Below, in pieces: positions 15,164 through 58,765 of a DNA stretch of 64,000 nucleotides (positions within the stretch are counted from its first letter, which is position 1; every line of letters starts with the position of its first letter). This DNA is from Minisyncoccota bacterium. Its GTDB lineage: Bacteria; Patescibacteriota; Minisyncoccia; Phycocordibacterales; UBA9973. The translations under genes were made by a program, and so were the position numbers. The stretch lies in contig DATKGV010000008.1 in the NCBI GenBank assembly GCA_035510575.1, forward strand, positions 68,618 to 132,617, in the 5' to 3' direction. The notes beneath the pieces are model-generated. The model did no database searches, was not told the DNA's origin, and saw only the letters and a list, made by a program, of their open reading frames with translations.

Positions 15164-15193
15164 TGGTCTATTGTATCTTAAAAAAAATTAAAA

Positions 15194-15720: not shown

Positions 15721-15729
15721 AAACAGATT

Positions 15730-24747: not shown

Positions 24748-25236
24748 CTAAACACCTGTGGAAAACCTTTCACAGGCAAGACATGTTAATCCTATGGCTA
24801 TAGCATCTAATTCGTCATCCGAATTGATTGAATTGTCCACTTTTATCAGCTTTAGAACCATGCGAATTACCATATCTTTGGTGGCTTTGCCGTAGCCGGT
24901 TACAGCCACTTTTATCTGCGGCGGAGTATATTCAAATATCGAAAGGCCGTTGCGCGACGCGCTATATACGATAACTCCGCGCGCCTCGGCTACTCCCATA
25001 ACTGTTTTCTGATTAGTGGTGAAATATAATTTTTCTATGGCTAGCGCTTCTGGCTTGTATTTTTTTATAACTCTCTCAATTTCATTGCCGATAGCAGTCA
25101 ATCTTTCATGGAAAGGAATTTTAGCAGATGTTTTGAAACAACTCGAATAAACCAGAACGTCTTTTTGTTTCGGTGTTCTCTCTATGACAGCTATTCCGAT
25201 TCTTTCAAATCCCGGATCAATTGCTAGTATTTTCAT
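24748..25236 (-). CDS. ruvC: Holliday junction resolvase RuvC
   Basis: MKILAIDPGFERIGIAVIE N-terminus with catalytic Asp, RNase H-like fold length (162 aa), C-terminal LDAIAIGLT motif. Confidence 0.8.
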   Translation of the reverse strand: MKILAIDPGFERIGIAVIERTPKQKDVLVYSSCFKTSAKIPFHERLTAIGNEIERVIKKYKPEALAIEKLYFTTNQKTVMGVAEARGVIVYSASRNGLSIFEYTPPQIKVAVTGYGKATKDMVIRMVLKLIKVDNSINSDDELDAIAIGLTCLACERFSTGV

Positions 25237-25248
25237 AAATACAATTAT

Positions 25249-25294
25249 ATACTAATTTCACCCCTCAGTCCTTCGGACAGCTCCCCTTCGCAGG
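25249..25294. repeat. left terminal inverted repeat flanking DUF559 gene (contains hairpin gctcccct-tcgc-aggggagc)
   Basis: cacccctcagtc..cagctccccttcgcaggggagcaaaa is the reverse complement of 25667-25712 except for a short central substitution. Confidence 0.75.
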
Positions 25295-25304
25295 GGAGCA
25301 AAAC

Positions 25305-25649
25305 TCAAAACTCTGATTTAATTTTCATCAAAACACTCTCAATATTTTTATCAATTTCATTATTCCAAAATCTTAGAGTTTTTATTCCAAGAGATTTCAT
25401 ATAATTTTCTCTTTCAATATCATATTCTTTTGCTTCTAAGTGTTGAGAACCGTCTATTTCGATAACTAAATTTTTTTCTTTACAATAAAAATCTACAATA
25501 TATGGCCCAATACCTTGTTGTCGTCTAAATTTTATTACTAAATTTTCATTTTTTAAATAAAACCATAATTTGAATTCTTGTGGAGTTAAAGATTTTCTTA
25601 ATTCTTTTCTTCTATCTTTAAATTTTGATTTATTAAAAATCTCATACAT
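25305..25649 (-). CDS. DUF559-type endonuclease-domain protein (Vsr/restriction-endonuclease-like fold)
   Basis: 114 aa; IVDFYCKEKNLVIEIDGSQHLEAKEYDIERENYMKSLGIKTLRFWNNEI matches the DUF559 core (D...E.DG..H pattern); it sits between ruvC and ruvB, flanked by 45-bp inverted repeats. Confidence 0.55.
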   Translation of the reverse strand: MYEIFNKSKFKDRRKELRKSLTPQEFKLWFYLKNENLVIKFRRQQGIGPYIVDFYCKEKNLVIEIDGSQHLEAKEYDIERENYMKSLGIKTLRFWNNEIDKNIESVLMKIKSEF

Positions 25650-25666
25650 AATGATATTATATAATT

Positions 25667-25712
25667 TTTTGCTCCCCTGCGAAGGGGAGCTGTCATTTAT
25701 GACTGAGGGGTG
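25667..25712. repeat. right terminal inverted repeat flanking DUF559 gene
   Basis: ttttgctcccctgcgaaggggagctgtc...ctgaggggtg, reverse complement of 25249-25294. Confidence 0.75.
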
Positions 25713-25713
25713 T

Positions 25714-26706
25714 TTACTTTTCTACATAATCAAATCCTAAATGCTCGTAACCTTTTTTTGTGACTGTTCGTCCGCGAGTGGTGCGCTCAATTAATCCAAG
25801 CTGGATCAGATACGGCTCAATCACTTCTTCAATCGTCGCTTCCTCTTCAGAAGTTGCCGCAGCGACAGTTTTTAATCCGACTGGTCCGCCGCCAAATTTG
25901 CTGATGATTATTTCAAGAATCCGCCTGTCGGACGCAGATAATCCGAGTTCATCAACTTCAAGCAAAGCCAAAGCTTTTTTTACTGTCTCTTTAGATAAAG
26001 GAATTTTGTGGACTTGGGCGTAATCGCGGCAGCGTTTCAGAAAATAATTGGCAATTCGAGGAGTAAATCTGGCGCGCTTGGCTATTTCGTTCAAGGCTTC
26101 ATCATCTAATTTAACTCCAAGTATTTTTGCCGATCGCATCAGGATCTTTTTTATCTCGTCATGAGTATAGAATTCAAGCCGGAATGTTCCGCCGGAGAAT
26201 CGCGAACGAAGAGGGGATGATAACAGCGCAATTCTGGTGGTAGCAGCGATGAGAGTGAATGGCGGAAGTTCAAGCTGTATGGTGCGGGCTGAAGGTCCTT
26301 TGCCGATGATAATATCAAGCACACCGGATTCCATAGCGGGGTAGAGAACCTCTTCAATCATTTTATTCAAGCGATGAATTTCATCTATAAAGACGATATC
26401 GCCGGGCGCAAGATTAGTAAGAATCGAAGCCAGATCGCCGACTTTATCTATCGCCGGACCTGAAGTTATTTTAATCTGCCTGTTTGTCTCTTTAGCTATC
26501 AAATGAGCAAGCGTGGTCTTGCCCAAGCCCGGCGGCCCGTAAAAGAGTATGTGTTCGGCCGGATGGGATCGCTCTTCCGCCGCAGTCAGAAGTATTTTAA
26601 GATTTGCCTTAATATTTTCCTGGCCGATATATTCATCCCAGGCGGTTGGACGCAGCGTCTGGTCAAGGTATCTTTCGTCTTTTGTTGTTTGTTCAGTGCT
26701 TGACAT
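25714..26706 (-). CDS. ruvB: Holliday junction branch-migration ATPase RuvB
   Basis: LRPTAWDEYIGQ, Walker A GPPGLGKTTLA, Walker B VFIDEIHRL, C-terminal winged helix. Confidence 0.9.
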   Translation of the reverse strand: MSSTEQTTKDERYLDQTLRPTAWDEYIGQENIKANLKILLTAAEERSHPAEHILFYGPPGLGKTTLAHLIAKETNRQIKITSGPAIDKVGDLASILTNLAPGDIVFIDEIHRLNKMIEEVLYPAMESGVLDIIIGKGPSARTIQLELPPFTLIAATTRIALLSSPLRSRFSGGTFRLEFYTHDEIKKILMRSAKILGVKLDDEALNEIAKRARFTPRIANYFLKRCRDYAQVHKIPLSKETVKKALALLEVDELGLSASDRRILEIIISKFGGGPVGLKTVAAATSEEEATIEEVIEPYLIQLGLIERTTRGRTVTKKGYEHLGFDYVEK

Positions 26707-37070: not shown

Positions 37071-38123
37071 TTATCTTTTTTTCTTTTTACCATAAAATAA
37101 TTTCTGATGCCTGTTGCAGAAATGCGCGCTGCGGCCGTCAAGGACTTTCCTTATTATAACACCATCGCAACCTTTCTTTCCACAAGGGTCGCCTCGCTTG
37201 CCGTAGGCATTATGATGATTCTGAAATCTGCCTCTTTTTCCGTTAATATCCCTATAATCCGACATTGAATCGCCGCCGAAATCTATGCCTTTGCTTAAAA
37301 CTTCTTTCATTGATTTATAAAGCAGCTGCAATTGCTTTATCGGAATGCAAACAGATTTTGATTCAGGATGAATGCCAGCCATCCAAAGCATCTCGTCGGA
37401 ATATATGTTGCCAATGCCGGCTATAACTGATTGATTCATCAAGACGGTTTTTATATTGCCATTTGTTTTCGTACCTAATCTTTCTTTGAATTTTAGAAAT
37501 GTGAAATTTTTATCCAAAGGTTCCGGCCCGATATTTTTCAGATGAATGCTTTCACTGGCAGTATCGGTATTCATCAGCGTTACTTTGCCGAATTTGCGCG
37601 CATCGGAAAACACGAATTGCTTGCCGTTTGAAAGAGAGAAAACAACATGTATGAATCTGTTATATAGATCATGCAGCGCCGCGCGCTCGTCGGGACTGGG
37701 GGACCAAGACCCCACTCTTCGCCCTCCCCTTGGCAAGGGGAGCCTGCCCGAATGACTCGGTCGGGCGGGGGTTGGGGAGGGGTGAAAAACATATTTGCCG
37801 TAAATAATATGCCCAGTCATTTTCAGATGTATTAAGATTGTGTTTTTTCTCCCCCTGCCTGAGGGGGAGTGGCCAGAGGCCGAGGGGGTGGGAGAAAGAT
37901 TTATCAAAATATTCTTGGCCCGGCGTTCTACATTTAAAATTTTACTTCCAACAACTTCCTTCTTGAATTTTTTATAGAAGGCTTCATCCTTGATTGTATT
38001 TTTAAACTGTTTAATTTTCTGGTTCTTTTTAGCCAAATCAGTCCAAACATCAGCAATAGACAAGCCCGGCAGGACTTTTTGCAAGCCATTTACTGTTGTT
38101 GTAACTTCTGGCAATTCCGGCAT
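37071..38123 (-). CDS. fpg: formamidopyrimidine-DNA glycosylase (Fpg/MutM) carrying two in-frame GC-rich repeat insertions
   Basis: N-terminal PELPEVTT (catalytic Pro2/Glu3), H2TH region, C-terminal zinc finger CGKKGCDG...CNRHQ; 350 aa vs ~270-290 typical, the excess being Pro/Ser/Arg/Gly-rich segments encoded by 37688-37785 and 37849-37892. Confidence 0.7.
   Translation of the reverse strand: MPELPEVTTTVNGLQKVLPGLSIADVWTDLAKKNQKIKQFKNTIKDEAFYKKFKKEVVGSKILNVERRAKNILINLSPTPSASGHSPSGRGRKNTILIHLKMTGHIIYGKYVFHPSPTPARPSHSGRLPLPRGGRRVGSWSPSPDERAALHDLYNRFIHVVFSLSNGKQFVFSDARKFGKVTLMNTDTASESIHLKNIGPEPLDKNFTFLKFKERLGTKTNGNIKTVLMNQSVIAGIGNIYSDEMLWMAGIHPESKSVCIPIKQLQLLYKSMKEVLSKGIDFGGDSMSDYRDINGKRGRFQNHHNAYGKRGDPCGKKGCDGVIIRKVLDGRSAHFCNRHQKLFYGKKKKR
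37688..37785. repeat. GC-rich palindromic element inserted in-frame in fpg (insertion 2)
   Basis: ccctccccttggcaaggggag hairpin and gggcgggggttggggaggggtg; same CCCCT-N4-5-AGGGG family as 7098-7186, 10155-10243 and the DUF559 IRs; encodes HPSPTPARPSHSGRLPLPRGGRRVGSWSPSP. Confidence 0.65.
37849..37892. repeat. GC-rich palindromic element inserted in-frame in fpg (insertion 1)
   Basis: ctccccctgcctgagggggag hairpin plus ggccagaggccgagggggtgggag; encodes PTPSASGHSPSGRGRKN between conserved Fpg beta-strands. Confidence 0.65.
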
Positions 38124-43337: not shown

Positions 43338-43412
43338 TGGTGATCCCGGCAGGAATCGAACCTGCATCATAACTTCCGCAAAGTTACGTCCTATCCATTG
43401 AACGACGGGACC
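43338..43412 (-). tRNA. tRNA-Arg (anticodon GCG), CCA encoded
   Basis: The minus-strand sequence GGTCCCGTCGTTCAATGGATAGGACGTAACTTTGCGGAAGTTATGATGCAGGTTCGATTCCTGCCGGGATCACCA folds as a cloverleaf. It has a 7-bp acceptor stem, a GG-containing D-loop, anticodon stem TAACT/AGTTA with loop TTGCGGA, and T-arm GCAGG-TTCGATT-CCTGC. Confidence 0.65.
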
Positions 43413-45740: not shown

Positions 45741-46157
45741 CCTAATACTAGGTTTCTCTTTTTTCTCTTTCTTTTGTGTGTTAAATATTTTAACTACTTT
45801 TGGTTAAAATATTTAACCAGTTTCGGTAAAAAGATTTAACCAGTTAATTTCCTTTACCAGTTTTTCCACAGGCAATCTAGGGATTGCCCTAATACTTTGT
45901 TTCTCTTTGTTTCCTTTCTTTTGTTAGTTCGTCCCGCGTACCGATATCGGTACGTCGGACGAACCGAAAGTGGTTCGTCTGCTGAACCAGTTCGTTTGGC
46001 GAACTACTTTATCCACAGGTTCACCTAATACTTAGTTTCCTTTGTTTCTCTTTCTTTTGTGTGTCTAAATTTTAGACTACTTTCGGTCTAGTATTTAGAC
46101 CGATTTCGGTCAAGATTTTAGACTGGTCTACTACCTAGACTACTTTATCCCCGGGCT
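45741..46157. promoter_or_regulatory. three tandem ~140-bp modules, each carrying four N5-spaced inverted-repeat sites of a different specificity (GTTAA-N5-TTAAC; GTTCG-N5-CGAAC; GTCTA-N5-TAGAC); candidate operator/centromere (parS-like) or iteron array
   Basis: Modules start at 45741, 45887 and 46024, each with a conserved pyrimidine-rich header cctaatact.gtttc.cttt..tt.c.ttcttttgt. Module 1 sites include ggttaaaatatttaacc, module 2 ggttcgtctgctgaacc and agttcgtttggcgaact, module 3 ggtctagtatttagacc and gtctaaattttagac. Sites sit ~21-25 bp apart and each module ends tactttatcc. Confidence 0.7.
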
Positions 46158-46200
46158 GTAAGCTATGGATTCAACAGTCTGATTTTCGTATAATGGACAC

Positions 46201-46566
46201 ATGACAAAAGTCATATACATCACCGATATCACGCTCCACTCGAAGGACTTTCGCGCAACGCCTAGTCTCGAAAAAGCAGAGCAGAGGAAATTTGCAGGAC
46301 TGCCGTCACCGCGCTTCTATTCTGGTGCGACTAAACTCGACGCGGTCGTCGAGGGCGTGAATCCAGACGGCACGTTCGAGTTCACGATCGACCTGCCCGT
46401 CGATCTCCGCGAAGGATTAGATCGCGGCGAAATCGAGATCCGCTCGCTTCGCGCGGGAGGCATTCCAATCTACCCCGGCAAAGATCTCATTGAAAAAATG
46501 GCACAGCTAAAAAAGAAGGAACGTCGAGAGCTGATCCACCGCAGTCGAAAGTGGCAAGCAAAATAA
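46201..46566 (+). CDS. hypothetical protein (first gene of element)
   Basis: 121-aa ORF in GC-balanced codon usage immediately after the operator array. Confidence 0.4.
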   Translation: MTKVIYITDITLHSKDFRATPSLEKAEQRKFAGLPSPRFYSGATKLDAVVEGVNPDGTFEFTIDLPVDLREGLDRGEIEIRSLRAGGIPIYPGKDLIEKMAQLKKKERRELIHRSRKWQAK

Positions 46567-46667
46567 ATCGTGGTATAGTATAAGCACAACTAAAGATTAC
46601 AGGTGGCGTACCGCACTTTGTGCCATGCCCGCTTCGTAGAGAAAGCCTAAGGAATTAATCTGTCGGA

Positions 46668-48011
46668 TTGATTTTTAAGTCTTCATCGCGAGGCGGGCTT
46701 TCTTATTTATTAGCGTTAATAGATAAGCAGATGCAAAAAACAACACTAGTGTGGCACACGGAGCAACGAAAAATCTCTGACCTCGTTCCAAGCTCCATCA
46801 ACCCTCGGACTATGAGTCCGAAGCAAATTGAAGACCTCAAGCAGAGTCTTCAAAAGTTCAATCTGGTCGAAATCCCCGTCATCGACACTAATAATAATTT
46901 AATCGCAGGACATCAGCGTCTGATGGTCATGAAGCTCCTCGGGCGTGGCGAGGAGGTTATTGACGTGCGCGTGCCGAGCCGGAAGCTATCCAAAAAAGAA
47001 TACGACGCGTACCTTCTTGCCTCGAACCGAATCCACGGCGACTGGGACTGGGCAAAACTCGCCGAGAACTTTGACCTCGAGCTTCTCCTTGAAAACGGAT
47101 TTGACGATAATGACCTCACCCACATCTGGGACGAGAATCTCACCGTTGAAGATGATGAATTTGATTTAGAAAAAGAACTCGAAAAAATCAAGACGCCGAA
47201 GACGAAATACGGCGACGCATACAAGCTCGGAAATCATTTCCTGTTCTGCGGCGACAGCGGGAATCTGGAGACGGTCAGACACACCGTGCACATCAAGAAC
47301 GTGGCGATGCTCTACTTCGACCCGCCGTACAACATCTCCCTCGACTACGACAAAGGCATCGGCGGCAAAAAACACTACGGTGGGAGTGTTAACGACAGCA
47401 AGCCGGACGATGAGTACAAGGAATTCCTGAAGGATATCATCACTAACGGCCTCCTGATTTCAAACATGGATACCCATGTTTTCGTCTGGTGCGACCAACG
47501 ATACATCGGACTCGTGCAGGAAATCTACGAGGAACTCGGCATCGACAGCAAGCGGGTGTGCCTGTGGATCAAGAACGGCGCGAATCCCACGCCAGGAGTC
47601 GCGTTCAACAAATGCTATGAGCCATGCGTGTACGGCGTGCGTGGCAAGCCGTACCTTTCCGACAAAGCACTCAACCTCACGGAGATTCTGAACAAGGAAA
47701 TCGGCAACGGTAACAAAGCCATCGACGACATGCTCGACATGTTGGATATCTGGCTCGTGAAGAGAGTCACAGGATCAGAGTATCAGCATCCAACGCAGAA
47801 GCCACCGAGCCTTCACGAGAAAGCATTGAGAAGATGCACCAAGCCTGGCGACATCGTTCTCGATCTCTTTGGCGGATCGGGATCAACGCTCATCGCGTGC
47901 GAACAATTGAATCGAAGATGCCACATGGTCGAAAAGGAACCAATATTCTGCGATGTCATCATCAACCGATATGAAAAACTCACCGGCACAAAAGCAATCA
48001 AGTTCAGTTAA
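46668..48011 (+). CDS. ParB-like nuclease domain fused to beta-class N6A/N4C DNA methyltransferase
   Basis: N-terminal ParB/Srx motif (NLIAGHQRLMVMKL); methyltransferase motif IV FDPPYN followed later by motif I (DLFGGSGSTLIACEQLNRRC), i.e. beta-class order. Confidence 0.7.
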   Translation: MIFKSSSRGGLSYLLALIDKQMQKTTLVWHTEQRKISDLVPSSINPRTMSPKQIEDLKQSLQKFNLVEIPVIDTNNNLIAGHQRLMVMKLLGRGEEVIDVRVPSRKLSKKEYDAYLLASNRIHGDWDWAKLAENFDLELLLENGFDDNDLTHIWDENLTVEDDEFDLEKELEKIKTPKTKYGDAYKLGNHFLFCGDSGNLETVRHTVHIKNVAMLYFDPPYNISLDYDKGIGGKKHYGGSVNDSKPDDEYKEFLKDIITNGLLISNMDTHVFVWCDQRYIGLVQEIYEELGIDSKRVCLWIKNGANPTPGVAFNKCYEPCVYGVRGKPYLSDKALNLTEILNKEIGNGNKAIDDMLDMLDIWLVKRVTGSEYQHPTQKPPSLHEKALRRCTKPGDIVLDLFGGSGSTLIACEQLNRRCHMVEKEPIFCDVIINRYEKLTGTKAIKFS

Positions 48012-48759
48012 GCAAGGTCAGGTCTGGCAGCTCGGCAGACACCGGCTGCTTGTCGGCGATGCGCTTGATTCCGAAGGCGTGAAGAAGCTTGTCGGCGCGG
48101 ACAAGATCAATTGCATCCTCACCGATGTGCCATACGGAATATCCTACACTGAGAGCAAAGAAAACTTTGCGAGCGTGAAGGTCAACAAGAAAATCCTGAA
48201 CGACAATATTTCGGATGAAACGCAGTATCAAAAATTCATGTCGGGGTGGATCAAGAATATCCTTCCGCACATGGCGAAGAAAAACAGCATCTACATCTTC
48301 AACTGCGACAAGATGCTGTTTGCGCTCAAGGCTTCGCTTGATGAATGCAAGATATATTTCTCTCAATTGCTGATTTGGGTGAAGAATCAAGCGGTCATCG
48401 GAAGAAAGGATTACCTGCCTCAGCACGAACTCATCGTCTTCGGATGGTTCGGCACGCATACGTTCAGAAGATCGAAAGACAAAAGCGTCCTCTTCTATCC
48501 TCGTCCCACAAAAAGCTCTCTCCACCCGACCATGAAGCCGATACCGCTTCTGCGGAATCTCATTCTCAACAGCACAAGCATCAACGACATCGTGTATGAC
48601 TGCTTCCTCGGTAGCGGTTCGACATTGATCGCGTGCGAGCAGACGCACCGCACCTGCCTCGGCGTCGAGCTTGATACCGAATACTGTCAGACCGTCATGG
48701 ATCGCTTCGAGAAGCTGATGAAAATCAAACCAAAATTATTGCATGAACAAAAACACTGA
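47953..48759 (+). CDS. beta-class DNA methyltransferase (paralog of the C-terminal half of the preceding gene)
   Basis: Motif IV variant ILTDVPYGISY, motif I DCFLGSGSTLIACEQTHRTC, C-terminal EKL(T/M)..K similarity to 46668..48011; overlaps it by 59 nt out of frame. Confidence 0.65.
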   Translation: MSSSTDMKNSPAQKQSSSVKQGQVWQLGRHRLLVGDALDSEGVKKLVGADKINCILTDVPYGISYTESKENFASVKVNKKILNDNISDETQYQKFMSGWIKNILPHMAKKNSIYIFNCDKMLFALKASLDECKIYFSQLLIWVKNQAVIGRKDYLPQHELIVFGWFGTHTFRRSKDKSVLFYPRPTKSSLHPTMKPIPLLRNLILNSTSINDIVYDCFLGSGSTLIACEQTHRTCLGVELDTEYCQTVMDRFEKLMKIKPKLLHEQKH

Positions 48760-49147
48760 AGAAAACAAGAATATGCTCTTGGAACAATTGCGGAAAACGC
48801 CGATCGTCCAGATCGCGTGCGAGAAGCTCGACATTTCCCGAGCCACTTTTTACCGGTGGAAATCCGAAGACGAGGAATTTGCTACGTTAGTTGATCAAGC
48901 AGTGAGTGAAGGACGATCACTCATTAATGATGTTGCAGAATCCCAGCTCATCGGCGCGGTCAAAGACCGGAACTTGGCGGCTATCATGTACTGGCTCAAG
49001 CACCACCATGGAGATTACAAGACCAAGGTGCAGATCGACGGCAGATTGGAAACGATACACGAGCTTTCAGTTGAGCAGAAGGCATTGGTCGAACAGGCAT
49101 TAAAGTTAGCAGGCATCACGCCCGAAGAAAACAATGAAGAATCCTAG
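48743..49147 (+). CDS. terminase small subunit-like HTH protein
   Basis: 134 aa with HTH LDISRATFYRWK and a conserved helical region (IMYWLKHHHGDYKTK), directly upstream of and overlapping the large terminase. Confidence 0.4.
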   Translation: MNKNTEENKNMLLEQLRKTPIVQIACEKLDISRATFYRWKSEDEEFATLVDQAVSEGRSLINDVAESQLIGAVKDRNLAAIMYWLKHHHGDYKTKVQIDGRLETIHELSVEQKALVEQALKLAGITPEENNEES

Positions 49148-50606
49148 CAGTGACATATTGGCGAGCATTGCCAAAGACCGCACCGTCAGGCAGAGCGTTA
49201 CCAGAGAAAGTCATCTTTTCTTTTTTCTCGTGTACTTTCCTCACTATGTGAAGTACGAGGTCGCGCCGTTCCAAGACGAGATATTCGACCTGACTCAAGA
49301 CACTTCAAAGAAATTGGTCTGCATTGTCGCGTTCCGCGGCTCGGCAAAGTCCACGATCGTCACCTTTTCATACACGCTCTGGGCGATCCTCGGGAAGCAA
49401 AACAAGAAATATGTCCTCATCGTCTGCCAGACGAAAGCGCAGGCAAAACAGCATATGATGAACATCCGCTATGAACTGGAAACGAACGATCTCCTCAAGA
49501 GCGACTTGGGACCGTTCCGAGAAGAAAACGATACAGAGTGGGCATCGTCGTCGTTGGTATTTGAGAATGTCGGAGCGAGAATCACGATCGCCTCGCTTGA
49601 GCAAAGCATCCGCGGATTCAAGCACAACCAGTACCGCCCCGATCTCATTATCCTTGACGACATTGAAGACCTGAACTCGACCAAGACGCTCGACAGCAGA
49701 AACAAGACGTTTGACTGGTTCTCTCGGGAAGTTGTTCCGCTCGGAGACATTGATACCAGAATCATATTAGTAGGAAATCTACTCCACGAGGACTCGCTCA
49801 TGATGAAATTGAAAACGAAGATTGAGAAAAGAGAAATGGATGGAGTGTTTAAGTGGTATCCGCTTCTCGATGACGAGGGCAGGTGCCTGTGGCCCGGCAA
49901 GTTTGACAGGCCTGAGAAAATCGAGGCACTGAGACGAAGCGTGGCGAATGAACTGGCGTGGCAGCAGGAATATTTATTGCATATAATTTCGGATTCGACC
50001 CGCGTGATATTCCCCGAGTGGATCCAATACTATGACAATCTGCCGGAAGGAATCGAGCATGATTCGCGGGGCGTGTTCATTGGAGTGGACTTGGCGATCT
50101 CGCAAAAAGAAACGGCTGACTATACCGCAGTCGTCACCGGAGTGCTGCACCAGATCGACCGAGAATTGAAAATGTACATCCTGCCGAATCCGATCAACAA
50201 GCGGATGCCGTATCCGGAAACAGTTAATACGATACGGATGATTGCAAAGAATCTGCCGTACAACATGGAGCCATTGGTGGTGATCGAATCGAACGGCTTT
50301 CAAGAAATTTATGCCGATCAGTTGGCGGGGTCGGGAGTGTTGGTCGAAGGCGTAAAAAATACGACTGACAAGCGGTCGCGCCTTGCCATGACTTCGCATT
50401 ACATACAGACAGGCGTGATCCAATTTCCGAGAAATGGAGCAGACGAGCTTATCAACCAGCTGACGGGATTCGGGATCGAGGGGCATGACGATCTTGCCGA
50501 TGCGTTCGCGATGGCGGTGATACGGTCGCTTGATGTCTTGCAGGACAACAGGGATTTTGACGCGTGGCTAAAATTTGTGGAGGAGAATGGGGGACCTTGG
50601 ATTTGA
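49134..50606 (+). CDS. phage terminase large subunit (ATPase + RNase H-like nuclease)
   Basis: N-terminal P-loop-like FRGSAKSTIV, Walker B LIILDDIEDL, C-terminal nuclease Asp cluster (FIGVDLAISQ...DYTAVVTG...ESNGFQ...HDDLADAFAMAV). Confidence 0.65.
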   Translation: MKNPSSDILASIAKDRTVRQSVTRESHLFFFLVYFPHYVKYEVAPFQDEIFDLTQDTSKKLVCIVAFRGSAKSTIVTFSYTLWAILGKQNKKYVLIVCQTKAQAKQHMMNIRYELETNDLLKSDLGPFREENDTEWASSSLVFENVGARITIASLEQSIRGFKHNQYRPDLIILDDIEDLNSTKTLDSRNKTFDWFSREVVPLGDIDTRIILVGNLLHEDSLMMKLKTKIEKREMDGVFKWYPLLDDEGRCLWPGKFDRPEKIEALRRSVANELAWQQEYLLHIISDSTRVIFPEWIQYYDNLPEGIEHDSRGVFIGVDLAISQKETADYTAVVTGVLHQIDRELKMYILPNPINKRMPYPETVNTIRMIAKNLPYNMEPLVVIESNGFQEIYADQLAGSGVLVEGVKNTTDKRSRLAMTSHYIQTGVIQFPRNGADELINQLTGFGIEGHDDLADAFAMAVIRSLDVLQDNRDFDAWLKFVEENGGPWI

Positions 50607-50611
50607 GCTAC

Positions 50612-53302
50612 TTACGCTTTTGAGAACAGTCGCACAATTTCTTCGAAATTCTTCGCTTTATTTTCTTCCCATTCCTCTTGTTTGATATACAGAGCTTCGT
50701 AGATCATTTTACTTTGCCTGTCATTCACATCCTTACACCACTTTTGCAAACGCTCAAACTTTATTTTGTCGTCCTCATCTTCTCTGCCTTTGGTCTCAAT
50801 GATGAAAACGGTCTTATCATTTTTTTTCACAAAGAAGTCAGGATAGTACGTGGCAATAAAGCCCTCGGAATTTTTATATTCAATTCGCAGAGCATTTGCT
50901 TCTTTGTTTTGGAAGTTTTTTGCATAAGAAATTATATCGTCGCACCGCTCAAGGAAATCGGCAAAAGTGAGCTCGAAATTACTATCGCCAACGATGCGAT
51001 TGAATACGGATTTTTTCGGGATCAAAAAAGATTTGTCATTTACAACGAATGGTCGCGCTTCACTTATCTTAATGTAGTTCTTTATTTCCGTATCACCACC
51101 ATCTTTTACTGTAAGCTCATTGATGGCTTTCTTGAACTCGTCCTTGATCAGCTTAATGTATTCGACTTCGGAGAGGTTCCGTAAGAGATTAAGATCGGAT
51201 AAATTGACAGCTCCCTCAAACATATAATTCTCCACGAAATCACGCACTTTACCGAATAAGATGTCGTAGCATCCGAAAAGTCGGAGCTCTCGCATTATCG
51301 CTTGGGCGAAGAAGCCTATGACGCTTTGATAGTTTGGCTCAATATCGCCAGTGAGAACAGTCGTATGGTGCGTCTTCTCATCTACAACGTCTTTAAACAC
51401 AATTTCGCGCTTCTCTTCCTCGGAAAATATTTTTATTTTTACTCGCTTACTACCAAACATTGAAACGTTAAGCTCTGATAGATTTTTATACTCTCTCTGT
51501 ATACGCGGACTCATGACAGGGATTTCAATATCGAGCTTTTCAATATCTTTTTTTGGGTTGTCCTTGTCCACTTCCACCACCATCGGCGTAATCGGCTTGG
51601 ATCCGCTACCCATCAGTCGCTTTTCAAGAAGTACACCCTCGCCTTTAATTGATTCAACAAAATCCATAAAGGCGGGAGTGCCGATGACACTTACATACTC
51701 ATCAACATCGTCTCTTCCGAAAAACATTCGTCGCAAGCCACGACCAAGCGTCTGTTCTGGCAATATCTTTGAGTCAGAGGCATATGGGCGAAGTCCCACG
51801 ATAGTTGTGACATTTTTCACATCCCATCCTTCTTTGAGCATCATCACAGAAATAATAACTTTGAATGGACTTTCCCAACTGTCGATGTCATTTGCTTGTT
51901 TTCGCAGGATTTCAAGTTCTTCCTTATTTTTTCCAGAGATGGTTTCAGAAATCTCACCACTTTTATTAGTATGAATTGTGAGGACTCCACCTTTTAGATC
52001 AGCGAAGCTCGTCTCAAGATATTGCGCTACTTCATCGCAGTTCTGAGTATCATCAGTCATTATGAACAATATAGATTTCTTACCTACAGGTTTGAGCGTC
52101 TCGTACGACTTCTTCCATTCTTCCACTCCAAGATTTATATAATCCCTGTATTTCTCACTGAACAGTGTGCTCTGGTTCGGCTTGAGTTTGCCACGGCTCG
52201 CTTCGTCCGGGACGACGGGATTTTTGACTATTCTCTGGTGTATTGCCTCAACAAGTGGATAGTCAGAAATCGTCTGTACGAAAATTGAGCCGTCCGTCTT
52301 CTTCGGTGTTGCAGTTACATCGAGTTGGAGCGACAACCCAGTACCTTTTTGTTTGAGGCGGTTGTCTATGTCTTGGATTGATTTGAACCAAGCGAGCTTC
52401 TCGTCGTGGATATGGTGTGCTTCGTCGTTAATGACGATCAACTCGTCTATATCTCGCACAATCATTCCCAAATCAACGGTAGAGTCATTCGTTTTCGTGA
52501 CAGGCTTTTCACCAAGGAAATACTGGGAAGCATCCTCGTCTTCTAGGGTTGCCTCTTTTGTGTCGCCTTCAAACACGCGATGGATATTTGTGAGGAATAT
52601 ATTACCTGTGTCTGAAATACCTCGCAGTGCATCTTGGAGGTGAAGTGTTACTTGAAAATCATCATGCCAGTTCTGTCCTCGATATCCATTATCAGGAAGT
52701 ACAGGATCTTCAAAAAATATGTTCAATCCTTCAAAATCTTTTTTTATTCGTTCAAAAACGATAACATTCGGAGTTATTAAAAGAAAGTTTTTTGCCAGCT
52801 TGGAGTCAGTTTCATAAAGTTTGTGAAAATACGCCCACGCGACGATCAAGCTCATAACTTTTGTCTTACCTGCCCCTGTCGCCATTTTTATCACGAAACG
52901 GAGCCAGTCCTCTGTGAACATTTGTGGAGAGAGTACGCCAGTCGAGTTGTATCTGATGAGATCGTATTTATCCTTTACTTGGGCAACCTCATAAAGCCAG
53001 ACAACTGTCTCCAGCGCTTCGCGCTGGGCGAAGTAGTATCGGAAATTATACGTAGTTCCATCTTTGTCAGCTAAAATATGTTCTTCTTTGAACCACCAGT
53101 TAAGCAATGCTATTGAAGTATCACTTGCTCCCTTGTAATTCTGGTCTCGCCACTCTTTTACTTTCTTTCGTAATTCCGCAACAAGAGGTGGAAGAAGTTT
53201 CTCATATCCTCGCTCGCGCAGATCCTCGGCAGCAGGAAACCACCGGATGCTCGGGTCGAGTATTTCAAATGGGTCTTTGGGAAAATCTTTATGTAGTGCC
53301 AT
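50612..53302 (-). CDS. res: Type III restriction endonuclease Res subunit (SF2 helicase + PD-ExK nuclease)
   Basis: Walker A TGAGKTKVMS, DEAH box VINDEAHH, helicase motif VI, C-terminal PD..ExK (YYPDFFV...IIETKG); lies immediately downstream of the mod gene on the same strand. Confidence 0.7.
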   Translation of the reverse strand: MALHKDFPKDPFEILDPSIRWFPAAEDLRERGYEKLLPPLVAELRKKVKEWRDQNYKGASDTSIALLNWWFKEEHILADKDGTTYNFRYYFAQREALETVVWLYEVAQVKDKYDLIRYNSTGVLSPQMFTEDWLRFVIKMATGAGKTKVMSLIVAWAYFHKLYETDSKLAKNFLLITPNVIVFERIKKDFEGLNIFFEDPVLPDNGYRGQNWHDDFQVTLHLQDALRGISDTGNIFLTNIHRVFEGDTKEATLEDEDASQYFLGEKPVTKTNDSTVDLGMIVRDIDELIVINDEAHHIHDEKLAWFKSIQDIDNRLKQKGTGLSLQLDVTATPKKTDGSIFVQTISDYPLVEAIHQRIVKNPVVPDEASRGKLKPNQSTLFSEKYRDYINLGVEEWKKSYETLKPVGKKSILFIMTDDTQNCDEVAQYLETSFADLKGGVLTIHTNKSGEISETISGKNKEELEILRKQANDIDSWESPFKVIISVMMLKEGWDVKNVTTIVGLRPYASDSKILPEQTLGRGLRRMFFGRDDVDEYVSVIGTPAFMDFVESIKGEGVLLEKRLMGSGSKPITPMVVEVDKDNPKKDIEKLDIEIPVMSPRIQREYKNLSELNVSMFGSKRVKIKIFSEEEKREIVFKDVVDEKTHHTTVLTGDIEPNYQSVIGFFAQAIMRELRLFGCYDILFGKVRDFVENYMFEGAVNLSDLNLLRNLSEVEYIKLIKDEFKKAINELTVKDGGDTEIKNYIKISEARPFVVNDKSFLIPKKSVFNRIVGDSNFELTFADFLERCDDIISYAKNFQNKEANALRIEYKNSEGFIATYYPDFFVKKNDKTVFIIETKGREDEDDKIKFERLQKWCKDVNDRQSKMIYEALYIKQEEWEENKAKNFEEIVRLFSKA

Positions 53303-53303
53303 A

Positions 53304-55562
53304 TTAAATTTTCACCTCGATTACTCGAGTGGTATCGTTACCAAAAATGTCTACGACCTTTACTGCAATGGTGTACGCTCCTTTTGGCATTTCTTTTTTT
53401 GCAGAAATGAGTTCAAGGTTCCTGTTCTTCTTAGTGCGAAAACTCTGCCATTCGTTATCAAAAATATAGTCTCCCGTCCATTCTTCTTTTTCTTCGCTGT
53501 CTTCTGTGAACTTTACGATTTCCTTTCGGCTTGTGAAATCAAAATCAACCGCCCAATAGTCAATCCAGTCACTCCACTTTTTTGTAAGCTGTTCAGGAGG
53601 ATTCACCATTCCATTCTTGTCGGTCGTGACTTTCCAAATCTGCCCTTTATCTACAACAATTTTAGTTTTACCTTTAGATCCGTTGATTTCCTCGATGACT
53701 GTATCGAGCTCGTCTTGTGAGTAGAAAACTGAGAAATCAGAAAGTTCGAGAGCAAGTTCTTTGATGCTTCCTTTGCCTGTTACAATAGGTTTGACCTCAA
53801 TGAAAGCAACATCGTAGAACTTGATTTGACCTTTTTCGACGGCGCGTTTGTCGAACACCTCGCGCGGGATGATTTTGAAAGATATATCCACGCCTTGTTC
53901 TTTGTACTCTTGAAAATCTATACCCATCTCGTAGTCGAAACCGAGTACATCCACTTTTGTAATCTGCTTTGATTTGCACTCTTTCACGATATCTTTTATG
54001 AGCTTATGTGAGACTGGATAATTTATAGGACCAACAGCAACGAGACGATCTCGCTTCTTACCGACAATATTCACGAACGATTCGACAGGCTCGGCTTTGT
54101 AAGCGGCGATGATGAGGCGAACAAACTCTTTTTCTTTTCGCTCTGCCTGTTTTGCTTTTTCTTCTGCTCGCAGATTATCGTTTATAGCAATATAGTTTTC
54201 ACGCTCGTATCTGCCAACGTTCAAAATTTCGAATGCTCGGAAATTCTTGCCCTCTTTTTTGAGTTCACGCTGTACTCCAATCATTCGCTTGCGAGAAGTA
54301 TGGACACCGAACTTGCCCAAATCGGATCCAATCCATTTTCTGCCGGACTTTTCTGCAACAGCCATTGTTGTACCCGAACCACAGAAAAAATCAGCGACAA
54401 GATTTCCTTCATCCGAAGACGCTTTGATCAAACGCTCTATGAGACTTTCGGGTTTCTGGGTTGGGTAATCAAGATTTTCTTTACTTATTGCTTGAATGTT
54501 GCTCGTAGTTTTATCTACAAATAAACTCTGTGCGGGAGTACCCTTGTTATCTTCTAAGTAATACTTGTAATGAATTGACTTATTTTTTGTAATAACAATT
54601 AAGTTATTTTTTATTGCTTCGTTTATTCTGTCTTGAGACCATCTCCAATGGTTTCCCTTGGGTGGAGCAATCAATTCACCATTGAAATATCTTGCCTCTC
54701 CAGATCCAGAAGCTGTCAGGGTGACCAATCTGTATTTTCTGCCGTCTCCGTCATCCAACTTGAAAAATGTATTTATGTAGTTTTCATCGGCTGGAGTATA
54801 TTGAGTATTAAAAATATAATTATCTGATTTGGTGTAGAACAAAATTGTGTCGTGTATATTTGCATACTTCGTATCAACATGCCCGTGCGGATTGCTTCTT
54901 TGCCAAATAATTTCATTCCTAAAATTATCTTTCCCAAAAATCTCATCCAAGACCAAACGCATATAACTATTTACTCTCCAATCACAATGCACATAAATAC
55001 TTCCGTCATCTGCGAGTAAGTCGCGCATCAATTTCAATCGCTCATAAATCATTGCGACAAAACTATCCGCACCCTTTCCCCAAGTATCACGATATGCGAT
55101 TTCTTCAATCACTGAAGGTTTTTTAGTAAACTGCTCCTCACCAATTTCTATATCCATCGAAAAATCCGCACCGACATCAAACGGAGGGTCTATGTAAATC
55201 AATTTAAGTCCGCCCTGTGCTTCAATTTCTTTTCGAAGCGGTCCGTTTTTGAGTGACGAAAGAATCAGTTTGTTATCGCCCCAGATGAGCTTGTTCGTCC
55301 AGCCCGTAACCTGTCTGCCAGTAGTATCAAAAAGTGAATCTTGCGCTCCGATCTTGCCTTCACTTCGAGGCTCATCGATTTGCTCGATTGCCTGAAACGG
55401 GAGGACAACATTTGTCACTTCGTTCGTTTTTCCATTCCAAAGAAGCTCGACCTCGCGGTCGTCTTTGAATAGTAAAAAACGATACTTGTCAGGGAGAGGT
55501 TTTCCTGCTTCCAAGTATTTTATTACATCTCTTTTTTCGTTATCTGAAAGATTTGATGACAT
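53304..55562 (-). CDS. mod: Type III R-M Mod subunit (N6-adenine DNA methyltransferase, beta class)
   Basis: Motif IV IYIDPPFDVGADF then motif I FFCGSGTTMAVAEKSGRKWIGSDL; 752 aa; 1-nt spacing to res. Confidence 0.7.
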   Translation of the reverse strand: MSSNLSDNEKRDVIKYLEAGKPLPDKYRFLLFKDDREVELLWNGKTNEVTNVVLPFQAIEQIDEPRSEGKIGAQDSLFDTTGRQVTGWTNKLIWGDNKLILSSLKNGPLRKEIEAQGGLKLIYIDPPFDVGADFSMDIEIGEEQFTKKPSVIEEIAYRDTWGKGADSFVAMIYERLKLMRDLLADDGSIYVHCDWRVNSYMRLVLDEIFGKDNFRNEIIWQRSNPHGHVDTKYANIHDTILFYTKSDNYIFNTQYTPADENYINTFFKLDDGDGRKYRLVTLTASGSGEARYFNGELIAPPKGNHWRWSQDRINEAIKNNLIVITKNKSIHYKYYLEDNKGTPAQSLFVDKTTSNIQAISKENLDYPTQKPESLIERLIKASSDEGNLVADFFCGSGTTMAVAEKSGRKWIGSDLGKFGVHTSRKRMIGVQRELKKEGKNFRAFEILNVGRYERENYIAINDNLRAEEKAKQAERKEKEFVRLIIAAYKAEPVESFVNIVGKKRDRLVAVGPINYPVSHKLIKDIVKECKSKQITKVDVLGFDYEMGIDFQEYKEQGVDISFKIIPREVFDKRAVEKGQIKFYDVAFIEVKPIVTGKGSIKELALELSDFSVFYSQDELDTVIEEINGSKGKTKIVVDKGQIWKVTTDKNGMVNPPEQLTKKWSDWIDYWAVDFDFTSRKEIVKFTEDSEEKEEWTGDYIFDNEWQSFRTKKNRNLELISAKKEMPKGAYTIAVKVVDIFGNDTTRVIEVKI

Positions 55563-56019
55563 AGGGGTACAGTTCTATGTCTCAGCTGTCTTATTTTTTT
55601 GTATAGAAACGGCAAAAAGGGACAGCCGAGCCTGTACCCCATAGCGGTGCTACCCCGAAAGGTTCCTGTTATGGAACTCGGACTGCCCCTCTTTGCCAAT
55701 AACAGGTAAGAGAAAACAGTCCTTTCGGGGACGAAGCACAATTATAAAAAACACTATGGGGTACTTTTGAAATATAACATAAAAACCCCCTTAAATGAAG
55801 CTTTATTTAAGGGGTTACCAACAGGCAGATTTAAGTGATATTTAGAGGAAAAGTATCACTTTTATGTGCCCCGCGCGATAGCAGATCAAAAAATCATAGA
55901 CATTGACACAAAACACAAAAATTGTACATTAAGCTCGGTCAACCCCCCGAATATTGAAGTTCCGACTCCTGCTCGGAGCTTCTTTTTCGGAATTATTAAA
56001 TAAGAAGAAATAGAAGCAT

Positions 56020-56895
56020 ATGACAAAACACAAGTTCACATTTGCAGAATTACCAATAGGTCAGGTCGCCCGAGATCCGAATCAACCGAGAAAAGACTTC
56101 GGAGCCGAAGGCGAGAAAAACAAGTTAAAATTATCAATCAAGAACTACGGAATCGAGGAGCCGATTAAAGTAAGCGAAATATCAGACAAGCGCTTTATTA
56201 TTATTGACGGACATCGTCGCTTCATATGTGCCCAGAAGCTTGGCATGAAGACGGTGCCTTGTCGCATCTATCCCAAGATGACGGACGGCGAGTTCGAGAC
56301 GAGACGTTACGAAATGCAAAACAATCGTCGTGCATGGAATCCGCTTGAACGCTCTGAAGCATTGGAGCGAATCAAGTACTCGTATGGGTTCAAGAACAAC
56401 CACGAGCTTGCCGATTACCTTGGCATGAGCAGATCATCTGTACAACTCGCAATGCAAATGAGAAAGCAGAGAATATCGAACTTAACAATGATGGAGAGAT
56501 ATAATGTACCGAAAAGCGTCCGTATGTCGATGCTCAACATCTTCAAGAAGCTCCGTAAGATCAAGAAACTTGAAGTCGATGACATCATCGAAGTCATATT
56601 CGAGAAGATCGACAAGAAAGTGATTACAAAATCGCTCGACATCCGCAAGATTGGCAAAGCGTTCATGCAAGCGACGATTAATGAGGATGAGCTGTACCAG
56701 TTTTTGACGAAGCCCGATATGACAGCGAATGAGCTCGAACAGCGTACGCGCCAGACAGGATTCGCGCTCATGTGTGGAGATCTCATCAAGAAGATTACTC
56801 AGAAAAAAGAGAATGGAACATCGTATACCAAGAACGAAAAAGCCTCTCTCGTTCAACTCCAAGCCCTTATCAGGAAAACTATAAAAGTCGCATAA
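56020..56895 (+). CDS. ParB-like N-terminal domain protein
   Basis: ParB/Srx core FIIIDGHRRFICAQKLG with upstream EPIKVS segment; 291 aa. Confidence 0.6.
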   Translation: MTKHKFTFAELPIGQVARDPNQPRKDFGAEGEKNKLKLSIKNYGIEEPIKVSEISDKRFIIIDGHRRFICAQKLGMKTVPCRIYPKMTDGEFETRRYEMQNNRRAWNPLERSEALERIKYSYGFKNNHELADYLGMSRSSVQLAMQMRKQRISNLTMMERYNVPKSVRMSMLNIFKKLRKIKKLEVDDIIEVIFEKIDKKVITKSLDIRKIGKAFMQATINEDELYQFLTKPDMTANELEQRTRQTGFALMCGDLIKKITQKKENGTSYTKNEKASLVQLQALIRKTIKVA

Positions 56896-56899
56896 TACT

Positions 56900-58288
56900 A
56901 TGGCAATATCTGTACCCACAAACAAAAAAGCCGTAGCGTATTATCGTCATTCTGCAAAAGATAAACAAGAAAATTCAGTTGCCATCCAACAAGGACATAC
57001 TCAAGCATTTGCCGCAACTCACAAAATAGAGATTATTCACGAAGAAGCAGATGAGGGTGAAAGCGGACTATCGGCCGATCGACCCGGATATCAGCGATTA
57101 TTCGATGAATGGATAACAAACCCCCTCGCCCCCGCCTTTGACTACGTCTTCGTATACGATGTCTCCCGTTGGGGACGATTTCAGGACCAAGACGAGGCGG
57201 CGCATTATGAATATCTTTGTAAGCAGCACGGTAAGAAAGTTGTTTACGTTTCGCAGGGCTTTCCTAAAGAAGATGAACAACTCATCTCCACACTTCAAAC
57301 ATCAATCGGTCGATACATGGCCGCCGAGTACTCGCGCCAGTTAAGCGGTAAAGTCTGGCACGGATGCGTCAAAGTTTCAGAGCAAGGATTTTCTGCCGGA
57401 GGACAGCCTCCATATGGGATGAGCCGATTACTTCTTGGCGAAGACAAGAAGCCAGTAAAGAAACTCAAACGAGGTCAATGGAAATCCATATCAAACGAGC
57501 GCGTCACATTCGCCCCTGCCGACGACGGAACAGCGGAGATAGTCAAAGACATGTATTCAATGCTCGTCGAGAAATGGGAATCGCCCCAGTCGATCGCCGA
57601 CATATTGAACGAGCGAGGCATTCCGACAGTGCAGGGTAAGAAATGGAAATCAAGCGGGGTGCTCAATATCCTCACTAACGAGGTATATACAGGAACCCGA
57701 ATTTACAACAAGACTTGGGGTCGATTGAAGCAAAAACATCGTGCTAATCCACGAAGCGAGTGGGTTATTCAGCCAAATGCGTTTGAAGGAATCATATCGT
57801 CTGAAATATTCAACGCCGCGCAAGACCGTCTGTACTGGCTCATGCCAAGCAAATGGCAAAAGGGCGCATACACGGTGCGAAAAGCGCGGCGTGGACTGCA
57901 AGCCGAAATCACGACCTTGCTCATGAGCAAAGGAATGGAAATCGACGACGCGGACATGGCGGTACGGAAATTGCCCATGGCGATCGGCGCACGGTTCACC
58001 GTCGAGGGTGTAGCCAACTGGTGCTTCACAGTGAAAGAATATATGAAGAATTATGACTACATCATCGGCGTAAGCGTCGCAACAGATCGGCATGATCCTG
58101 TTGATAGGTTCTTCTGGATTCCCATCAGCACATTTGACGGCACGGACTATGTGGTATTCTCGGAGAAAGATGACTGCTATCACACTTCGAGTATTCCGAG
58201 TGGCGAGGTTCAGAAAAGGATTCTGTCCTTGTTGCCTGATCTTAAATTATTTAGCGATTTACCTATAATAATTCCGCCAACAGAATAA
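56900..58288 (+). CDS. large serine recombinase (resolvase N-terminal catalytic domain + recombinase domain)
   Basis: N-terminal KAVAYYRHSAKDKQ (catalytic Ser context), ...VFVYDVSRWGR, recombinase domain (PYGMSRLLLGEDKKP); 462 aa. Confidence 0.7.
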   Translation: MAISVPTNKKAVAYYRHSAKDKQENSVAIQQGHTQAFAATHKIEIIHEEADEGESGLSADRPGYQRLFDEWITNPLAPAFDYVFVYDVSRWGRFQDQDEAAHYEYLCKQHGKKVVYVSQGFPKEDEQLISTLQTSIGRYMAAEYSRQLSGKVWHGCVKVSEQGFSAGGQPPYGMSRLLLGEDKKPVKKLKRGQWKSISNERVTFAPADDGTAEIVKDMYSMLVEKWESPQSIADILNERGIPTVQGKKWKSSGVLNILTNEVYTGTRIYNKTWGRLKQKHRANPRSEWVIQPNAFEGIISSEIFNAAQDRLYWLMPSKWQKGAYTVRKARRGLQAEITTLLMSKGMEIDDADMAVRKLPMAIGARFTVEGVANWCFTVKEYMKNYDYIIGVSVATDRHDPVDRFFWIPISTFDGTDYVVFSEKDDCYHTSSIPSGEVQKRILSLLPDLKLFSDLPIIIPPTE

Positions 58289-58344
58289 AAAGAATTAGAA
58301 TTATTGACTGGACTTATTTACGATCTTGCGTCATCTAATAGAGT

Positions 58345-58668: not shown

Positions 58669-58765
58669 TTATAAAAAATTGCGCGAACTCGCTTCGCGAG
58701 TAAATGCCAAAGGGTCAAAGAATCCAAGAGCCAAAGAATCAGAAAAATACAAAGAGGCAATAGGT

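Follow-up and report, generated by a model that had tools for sequence, protein, structure and literature searches.

In-frame GC-rich palindromic tracts in the fpg gene of a Minisyncoccota bacterium, probable copies of a cross-phylum repeat family found around DUF559 genes

Introduction

Yeast mitochondria harbour mobile GC clusters and 'byp' elements, GC-rich palindromic mini-elements that invade the coding regions of an AT-rich genome; byps belong to a eukaryotic organelle, where the ribosome skips them, in frame or not. In bacteria, the insertion of palindromic repeats in frame is established for the Rickettsia palindromic elements (RPEs; Ogata et al. 2000, as reported in PMC10969869 and PMC3733652), which in these two accounts measure about 100-150 bp and come only from Rickettsia. 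Repetitive extragenic palindromes (REPs), of 20-40 bp and often arranged as inverted doublets, are linked to the REP-associated tyrosine transposases (RAYTs) and also occur within genes (Di Nocera et al. 2013, PMC3733652). In-frame fusions with host open reading frames (ORFs) are known for several prokaryotic MITEs, miniature transposable elements with inverted repeats (PMC10969869). Here, we analysed a 64,000-nucleotide stretch of contig DATKGV010000008.1 from a Minisyncoccota bacterium (the window), whose fpg (mutM) gene contains two GC-rich palindromic tracts, inserts 1 and 2. These tracts are probably (at roughly 0.8) copies of a short, structured, selfish palindromic repeat tolerated as translated loops, and the family to which they belong spans genes, genomes and phyla.

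The repeats described here (units) share with RPEs, as the same accounts present them, a short palindromic form, an occurrence both between genes and in frame within housekeeping genes that are unrelated to one another, in a genome that is reduced and AT-rich, a preserved ORF with an added peptide compatible with the fold, and the lack of a transposase within the element. They differ in being 40-45 bp long (composites to about 95 bp), in being GC-rich in a genome of 40% GC, in their layout of a box and two hairpins, and in their presence in many phyla and clustering around DUF559 genes, a distinction drawn from these features without an alignment to the RPE consensus. Like REP/RAYT systems, they include inverted units that flank a nuclease gene, with many repeats for few nuclease genes, and the copies in fpg, PolA and Lhr parallel the intragenic REPs. 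In contrast to REPs, the units lack a GTAG or CGTC tag and have, in addition, a conserved 5' box as well as a second hairpin; the flanked gene codes for a Vsr-like PD-(D/E)xK protein, DUF559 (PF04480), and not for a HUH/Y1 RAYT, the scan of the window for RAYT genes not being exhaustive. The family therefore works like RPEs and REP/RAYT but is a member of neither.

Results

Two palindromic tracts in fpg and their relatives in the window

The fpg ORF is open over 350 aa, as the initial annotation had described it, and matches the Pfam domains H2TH (E=1.9e-25) and Fapy_DNA_glyco (E=4.2e-21), the 117-position profile of the Fpg N-terminal domain being stretched across residues 1-181. In a window of 40% GC, two islands of 65-73% GC lie within the gene, at 37662-37788 and 37842-37902, and a codon alignment showed that both tracts are clean in-frame insertions. 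In comparison with 120 orthologs, the net gains are 14 aa for insert 1 and 20 aa (residues 115-134) for insert 2, fewer than the approximately 17 and 35 residues first proposed, and conserved sequence resumes after insert 2 at W140 instead of at HDLYNRF. Insert 1 is one complete unit, with a predicted DNA fold of -12 kcal/mol (z -2.25 versus shuffles). Insert 2 is a composite tract with three hairpins, of -22 kcal/mol (z -2.5).

The layout of a unit is a CACCCC(C)TC box, followed by a small hairpin of variable sequence and by a CTCCCC(C)T-loop-AGGGG(G)AG hairpin. This architecture of box, middle hairpin and terminal hairpin is the same in the fpg tracts and in the intergenic copies of the window (Table 1). 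As single strands, the tracts fold better than their shuffles, with z values from -2.3 to -5.4, and the unit forms two hairpins. The motif CCCCT-N3-8-AGGGG was observed 8 times in the window, at 7104, 7162, 10158, 10223, 25283, 25674, 37726 and 37852, for 0.10 expected from dinucleotide-preserving shuffles; two of these sites are within fpg and six outside genes. The initial annotation had placed the same hairpins between genes at 7098, 10155 and 25249/25667; the motif scan recovered these sites, although the copies at 25.2 and 25.7 kb turned out to flank a DUF559 gene.

The doublet at 7098-7187 lies between the co-directional ORFs 5983-7089 and 7212-7625 and folds into three helices (-28.9 kcal/mol, z -4.9). 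In the intergenic doublets, the two boxes pair with each other in the DNA fold and form the third, central helix. The left unit of the 10152-10245 doublet is the nearest relative of insert 1 in the window. No consistent GTAG/CTAC or CGTC/GACG tag was seen within 10 nt of six copies of the window, and the GTAG/CGTC tag is absent from the flanks of 141 copies of the family, whose conserved tag is CACCCC(C)TC. No Rfam family matched the units: at the gathering threshold, the matches in the window and six loci were limited to tRNAs and a single group I intron, and permissive settings applied to two doublets yielded only sub-threshold noise of the miRNA-hairpin kind. We also considered UNCG RNA tetraloops in the middle hairpins and rejected them, the best pairing register being C-(TNC)-G triloops in near-perfect palindromes.

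Table 1 Coordinates of fpg, of repeat units and of the DUF559 gene in the window, and in-frame units of other genomes
Feature	Position	Strand or frame of coordinates	Description
fpg/mutM coding sequence	37071-38123	minus	350 aa, open ORF; Pfam Fapy_DNA_glyco (N-terminal) and H2TH
Insert 1	37849-37892	minus	one complete repeat unit, in frame as PTPSASGHSPSGRG, residues 78-91
Insert 1, box	37890-37882	coding strand	CACCCCCTC
Insert 1, middle hairpin	37881-37871	coding strand	GGCC-TCT-GGCC
Insert 1, terminal hairpin	37869-37849	coding strand	CTCCCCCT-CAGGC-AGGGGGAG
Insert 2	37692-37784	minus	composite GC-rich tract, residues 114-144 (31 aa)
Insert 2, box	37777-37784	plus-strand coordinates	CACCCCTC
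Insert 2, long middle hairpin	37746-37766	plus-strand coordinates	
Insert 2, terminal hairpin	37724-37742	plus-strand coordinates	CTCCCCTTGGCAAGGGGAG
Insert 2, extra hairpin	37698-37713	plus-strand coordinates	GGGG..CCCC; resembles the centre of a doublet
Intergenic doublet	7098-7187		hairpin - GAGGGGT box - spacer - ACCCCCTC box - hairpin
Intergenic doublet	10152-10245		layout as the 7098-7187 doublet; between ORFs 8308-10143 and 10272-11288; fold z -3.3
Unit, left arm of DUF559 element	25259-25299	plus	fold z -4.4
DUF559 gene (Vsr-like PD-(D/E)xK endonuclease)	25305-25649	minus	114 aa; between ruvC and ruvB
Unit, right arm (inverted) of DUF559 element	25670-25712	minus	fold z -5.4
In-frame unit, IMP dehydrogenase (IMPDH)			Saccharibacteria
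In-frame units (several), ELP3-like radical-SAM protein			Moranbacteria
In-frame unit, LeuRS			Patescibacteria
In-frame units, LepA and R3H protein			Nomurabacteria
In-frame unit, Lhr helicase			Ignavibacteriales
In-frame unit, CdsA			Bacteroidaceae
In-frame unit, DNA polymerase I	L003:15752-15768		PolA ORF 14335-16779; genome of fpg ortholog P0004
In-frame unit, another fpg	L105		

Distribution of the inserts among fpg orthologs

The 120 orthologs, of Patescibacteria/Nomurabacteria type where the source is named, have a usual length of about 309 aa. The gene order rpsT-ruvA-fpg-SpoU methylase is conserved among the compared loci and therefore the compared fpg genes are true orthologs. Each site is ordinarily a tight turn (RRAKNILINL-SNKK-TILIHL for site 1 and YGKYVFNKKENKW for site 2), and the alignment indicates that the short turn (NLSNKK, VFNKKENK), seen in most of the orthologs, is the ancestral state at both. 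Insert 1 is missing from about 100 of the 120 orthologs. In its full form, it is present in about 10 of 121 proteins, at an identical codon, in the same orientation and frame, and seven further proteins have shorter, AT-drifted versions of site 1 such as NLYPKPDKSGRAR; eroded remnants of this kind are seen in P0001, P0023, P0039 and P0043. The clade of the window (dS, the synonymous divergence, of about 1.1-1.3) already combines an intact insert 1 (window), an eroded one (P0001) and a clean absence (P0003, the closest ortholog free of any insert, whose two sites are tight turns).

To trace the history of insert 1, we masked the insert columns and built 100 bootstrap trees by neighbour joining. 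The full insert requires at least 5 changes (median 7), and at least 10 when any insert at site 1 is counted; on these trees the carriers fall in at least five separate parts and their distribution is patchy. Among seven carriers, the DNA of insert 1 is 93% identical and its third codon positions 88%, versus 68% for the flanks, whose third positions are saturated at 46%. The proportion of synonymous differences (pS) between the window and the other carriers is 0.78-0.87. The window and L207 are alike at 42 of 42 insert bases for an overall protein identity of about 65%.

We consider two explanations for a near-identical insert in such distant orthologs. In the first, somewhat better supported than an even chance on these comparisons, the same site would have acquired the unit repeatedly and precisely, by copying or homing; this is favoured because erosion and loss in the window clade span much shorter distances than those between carriers. 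Independent draws from the pool of units of each genome are unlikely, because the other copies of the window differ from the fpg copies in middle hairpin and loop. In the second, which we hold unlikely, one ancient insertion in the fpg of an ancestral Patescibacteria was inherited vertically and kept in some lineages by constraint at the nucleotide level, for instance as a DNA/RNA element within the gene that binds a protein or forms a structure, and has decayed or been precisely lost elsewhere. Several observations fit such a descent: all carriers have the same codon, orientation, frame, middle hairpin and loop, the middle stem of L206 shows a compensatory change (GGCT/AGCC), the remnants cited above attest that decay and loss do occur, the fpg copy persists in L206 and L207 as the sole hairpin of the family in 8-21 kb, and insert 1 has no co-conversion tract around it. 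However, vertical descent would have to account for an identity of third positions and loop that exceeds what the maintenance of a hairpin needs next to saturated flanks, and for at least five independent precise losses. Moreover, intact, eroded and absent states already coexist in the window clade, and the clade of P0023 shows the insert only eroded or absent; therefore the insert does not seem to persist over such distances without active maintenance. Repeated acquisition at the same site remains the reading that we prefer.

Insert 2 has a counterpart in only one ortholog, L002, at the same site, shorter and without the middle hairpin. In a different fpg clade (L207:7021-8046 and L208:694-1671), another GC-rich palindrome (CCTGCC...GGCGGG) occupies the loop of insert 2, where it encodes KPARRQGG / KPARPPKQSGAGG, and resembles the middle hairpin of insert 2 of the window. 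Units that are identical in other respects can have or lack the middle hairpin (L090, L002), which thus resembles a separable module.

Predicted loops in the Fpg protein

The ratio of nonsynonymous to synonymous substitutions (dN/dS) of fpg versus its two closest orthologs is 0.07, and 0.065 between those two, which indicates a gene under strong purifying selection that is not decaying. The residues P2, E3, K70, M102, R176 and F178 and the zinc site C314/C319/C336/H339 are all intact. In the whole ortholog group, the zinc finger (37071-37180 in the window) has the form C-X4-C-X16-C-X2-H, with its four ligands invariant across 50 sequences; the classical zinc finger of Fpg is the four-cysteine form.

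An AlphaFold model built with 50 orthologs reached a mean predicted local distance difference test (pLDDT) score of 86.4, and its Foldseek comparison with MutM 1r2y, of the MutM-DNA complexes, gave a template-modelling score of 0.87 (target-normalised). Insert 1 is modelled as a coil of low pLDDT between strands 71-76 and 94-99, and insert 2, with pLDDT below 50-60, between strands 111-114 and 139-142. Both are thus predicted to be disordered loops, apparently at the protein surface, at turns between adjacent β-strands, in agreement with the placement between strands given by the initial annotation. The residues K70 and M102, counterparts of E. coli K56 and M73, are 6-8 residues away from insert 1, on the other end of the hairpin; the antiparallel geometry suggests that insert 1 points away from the DNA.

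The lengths of the inserts are 39, 42, 45 and 51 nt at site 1; at site 2, the net gain is 33 nt in L002 and 60 nt in the window. All the inserts seen in fpg have a length divisible by three and contain no stops, in a sample of full-length database proteins where frameshifting copies would not show (an ascertainment bias). We infer from the reading frames that the inserts are translated rather than removed, as loops rich in Pro, Ser, Gly and Arg. The inserts are strong hairpins within a coding region, and could in principle be excised from the RNA or skipped by a programmed translational bypass, of which T4 gene 60 is an example. We judge this very improbable, since an open frame is always kept, eroded remnants remain as ordinary AT-rich codons and no stop codon follows a take-off site; unlike byps, the inserts are always in frame and open.

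The tracts could also be lineage-specific loops of Fpg with a function at the protein level, the resemblance to hairpins being coincidental. The peptide of insert 1 is indeed nearly invariant in about 10 orthologs. Its conservation, however, reaches synonymous positions, the full three-part architecture is common to intergenic copies and unrelated genes, P0003 does with a tight turn at each site, and the loops are predicted to be disordered, with decayed versions tolerated, so that a protein-level origin has very little probability. The initial annotation had named orthologs carrying the same segments as an observation that would count against insertion. Such orthologs do exist, about 10 of 120 for insert 1 and one, shorter, for insert 2; they do not rescue a conserved protein segment, because the distribution is patchy on every bootstrap tree and the conservation acts on nucleotides, third positions included. 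Translated copies of a repeat remain the preferred account of both tracts.

The repeat family in other genomes

The search for the full unit covered one genome of each species, with the middle segment and the loop left free and five-C boxes required. This pattern gave at least 119 loci across many phyla, the matches listed including Patescibacteria, Bacteroidota, Planctomycetota, Abditibacteriota, Alphaproteobacteria, Nitrospirota, Clostridia and others, with the cultured isolates Oceanicaulis, Rhodanobacter and Marinicauda. Among the matches listed, 78% of the middle segments of at least 12 nt have a Watson-Crick stem of at least 4 bp, versus 13% of shuffles (maximum 26%). Many variants of this stem, which was absent from the search pattern, are compensatory; a formal count of covarying pairs agrees, with a bias toward selected hairpin-forming copies. 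In either orientation, units are in frame in at least nine conserved proteins of other genomes (Table 1).

The cross-phylum family appears to be undescribed. The RPE-like insertion in frame put forward by the initial annotation is borne out by the shared architecture, by the lack of the inserts in most orthologs, by these in-frame proteins and by the location in predicted coils; such insertion is, on the other hand, special neither to this lineage nor to fpg, as the family crosses phyla and occupies several genes, and insert 1 itself reaches beyond this lineage. The window probably comes from a metagenome-assembled genome and repeats can cause mis-assembly, so GC-rich repeats might have been mis-joined into an AT-rich gene during assembly or binning. 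The probability of such an artefact is negligible: the unit occupies the same codon in seven independently assembled contigs of different projects (JGI, ENA, Logan and NCBI assemblies), the frame is preserved and selection intact, and the family is also present in genomes of cultured isolates. The initial annotation of the two tracts is confirmed.

A word-index protein search with the fpg-type unit in five concatenated frames gave no candidates, low-complexity words being probably unindexed, and an exhaustive HMMER search with the 34-aa peptide of insert 2 gave no matches at E <= 0.001, an uninformative result for a short and biased query. A viral vector for the family was rejected, with only 3 matches among 2.9 million viral contigs. 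The 'long RuvA' of L209 was discarded as a case of insertion, being only an upstream extension of the ORF call. PolA is another replication/repair gene that holds a unit of the family. In Moranbacteria GW2011_GWF2_35_54, a group I intron (L019:6222-6424, Rfam RF00028, 69 bits) lies within a tRNA cluster and shares its locus with the radical-SAM gene that holds several in-frame units.

Association with DUF559 genes

Two inverted units flank the DUF559 gene of the window, whose product matches PF04480 with E=3.1e-35 (120.8 bits for a cut-off of 20.6; profile positions 3-106 of 109). We sampled 80 DUF559 genes independently from metagenomes and counted the hairpins of the family around each. Within 150 nt of the gene, their density is 2.64/kb (61 in 23 kb), versus 0.04/kb (6 in 148 kb) farther off in the same loci, an approximately 65-fold enrichment. 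At least one hairpin lies within 150 nt of 42 of the 80 genes, and 12 have hairpins on both sides. In the reverse test, a hidden Markov model of the sampled genes found DUF559 in only 4 of the 119 unit loci listed, with units within about 300 nt each time. No paper tying DUF559 to repeats was found in the literature searched, and the association appears to be undescribed.

In L090, a full element of the form hairpin-box-DUF559-box-hairpin (4780-5254) is found about 600 nt from a doublet without gene (5877-6016). The two have their arms in common, with a left arm that matches perfectly for about 66 nt, and the homology continues until just before the DUF559 start codon. As for MITEs, gene-less doublets with inverted arms look like an internally deleted gene-carrying element; in contrast to MITEs, no target-site duplications were seen here, the parent element has no recognised transposase, and single units, not just doublets, are inserted. 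In a Bacteroidales metagenome-assembled genome (L109:2560-4326, JAFSKP010000047.1), an uninterrupted ORF of 589 aa contains, in this order, the GHMP-kinase N domain of IspE, three repeated segments encoded by units, a full DUF559 domain (aa 288-393), more units and the GHMP-kinase C domain. A whole DUF559 element thus appears to sit in frame inside the essential gene ispE.

DUF559 adjoins ruvB and/or ruvC in the window (24748-26706) and in 3 of the 80 sampled loci (L128, L153 and L187), one of which is a gut contig of 59% GC. The DUF559 proteins of the window and of L128 share 80% identity, for only 61-63% in the flanking RuvC and RuvB.

A survey of PD-(D/E)xK proteins groups DUF559 with Vsr and a group I intron homing endonuclease (PMC3424549), and a Caulobacter DUF559 protein was proposed to be a Vsr-like repair nuclease (PMC12907096). 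Vsr-fold homing endonucleases of the I-Bth0305I type (PMC3424549), of the same nuclease clan, are selfish genes that invade conserved genes at specific sites. The occupancy of the same fpg codon in distant orthologs and the DUF559 element in ispE are homing-like features. Those enzymes, however, reside in introns or inteins that are spliced out, whereas nothing here indicates splicing and the 42-nt insert of fpg has neither a nuclease gene nor a co-conversion tract.

By analogy with REP/RAYT, the DUF559 nuclease might mobilise or maintain the units, a proposal to which we give a little less than an even chance. The units could also be REP-like structures, useful to the host or neutral (hairpins for RNA stability or for the binding of a protein, for instance), that spread by another route, with DUF559 as a selfish homing-type gene that inserts by preference in or near them. 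This we find doubtful, even though DUF559 in L090 fills the spacer of a doublet that also exists empty, arms in both orientations are found around DUF559, the Vsr/DUF559 clan includes a homing endonuclease, most of the units listed are far from any DUF559 gene, and the DUF559 protein shared with L128 is closer than its neighbours. A host-useful regulatory hairpin would leave unexplained the in-frame copies, in both orientations, in at least nine housekeeping genes, and no other candidate mobilising gene was met beside the units, no systematic search having been made.

Other features of the window

The region 46000-64000, with a tRNA-Arg at 43338-43412, is a mobile/defence island of higher GC (42-49%) and contains no repeat unit of the family. 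It carries three N6/N4 DNA methylases, a type III restriction-type helicase, a ParB-like protein, two large serine recombinases and a reverse transcriptase (61355-62449); recombinase/methylase cargo of a similar kind is found near fpg in L003, L206 and L207. The reverse-transcriptase ORF has, just after its start, a stretch of 11 G (61405-61463), which could be a slippage-prone homopolymer or a hotspot of sequencing errors. An exact duplicate of 41 nt (2358-2398 and 2634-2674, 276 nt apart) is ordinary: in a probable surface protein, a domain of about 92 aa (…SSTGGSSVLTWTVANMQYSPASCVASGGSGWTGSK…) is repeated in tandem.

Discussion

The data support the hypothesis that the two fpg tracts are copies of a selfish repeat. 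Units would have landed in two β-hairpin turns of the N-terminal domain of Fpg, with lengths that are multiples of three. Being GC-rich and free of stops in the frame used, they would simply be translated into disordered loops. These loops would lie at the end of the β-sandwich far from the DNA-contacting K70 and M102, and the enzyme would tolerate them. The family would take the forms of single units and inverted doublets between genes, of in-frame units in housekeeping genes and of full DUF559 elements.

Several points weigh against this account or its mobile component. The neighbour-joining trees are simple distance trees. No raised identity was seen in the fpg codons that flank insert 1, so classical homing with co-conversion is not evident. 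A comparison of occupied and empty alleles of the fpg sites showed no target-site duplication, and no conserved target motif was seen. The middle hairpin and loop that fpg copies have in common across genomes, unlike the other copies of the window, would also fit vertical inheritance with constraint. For DUF559, 115 of the 119 unit loci listed have no such gene within about 4 kb, and the direction of the association might be reversed, the repeats being the target of the nuclease gene. DUF559 is, to our knowledge, not a known transposase.

More tentatively, DUF559, a very large family of Vsr-like nucleases that is so far uncharacterised, may be the dedicated partner of these structured cross-phylum GC-rich palindromic repeats, with units of 42 nt copied precisely into the same codon of conserved genes, fpg among them, of distantly related genomes in a homing-like manner, without intron or intein; we give this less than an even chance. 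If true, it would add to REP/RAYT a second system with a different mechanism, and streamlined bacteria would have translated repeat loops in their essential proteins.

Palindromic repeats in coding frames have been regarded mainly as a curiosity of Rickettsia, with intragenic REPs scattered elsewhere. The same behaviour is now seen in several other phyla and in Patescibacteria, whose tiny genomes leave little room between genes. In metagenome-assembled genomes, gene calls and protein alignments are inflated and distorted by these units, which give rise to spurious segments rich in Pro, Ser, Gly and Arg, to N-terminal extensions and to fused ORFs; recognising the motif would improve annotation. 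The near-identical insert at the same codon of divergent fpg genes offers a system for how a 42-nt element is targeted or maintained, and the statistical link with DUF559 suggests a function, open to test, for a domain that thousands of genomes encode.

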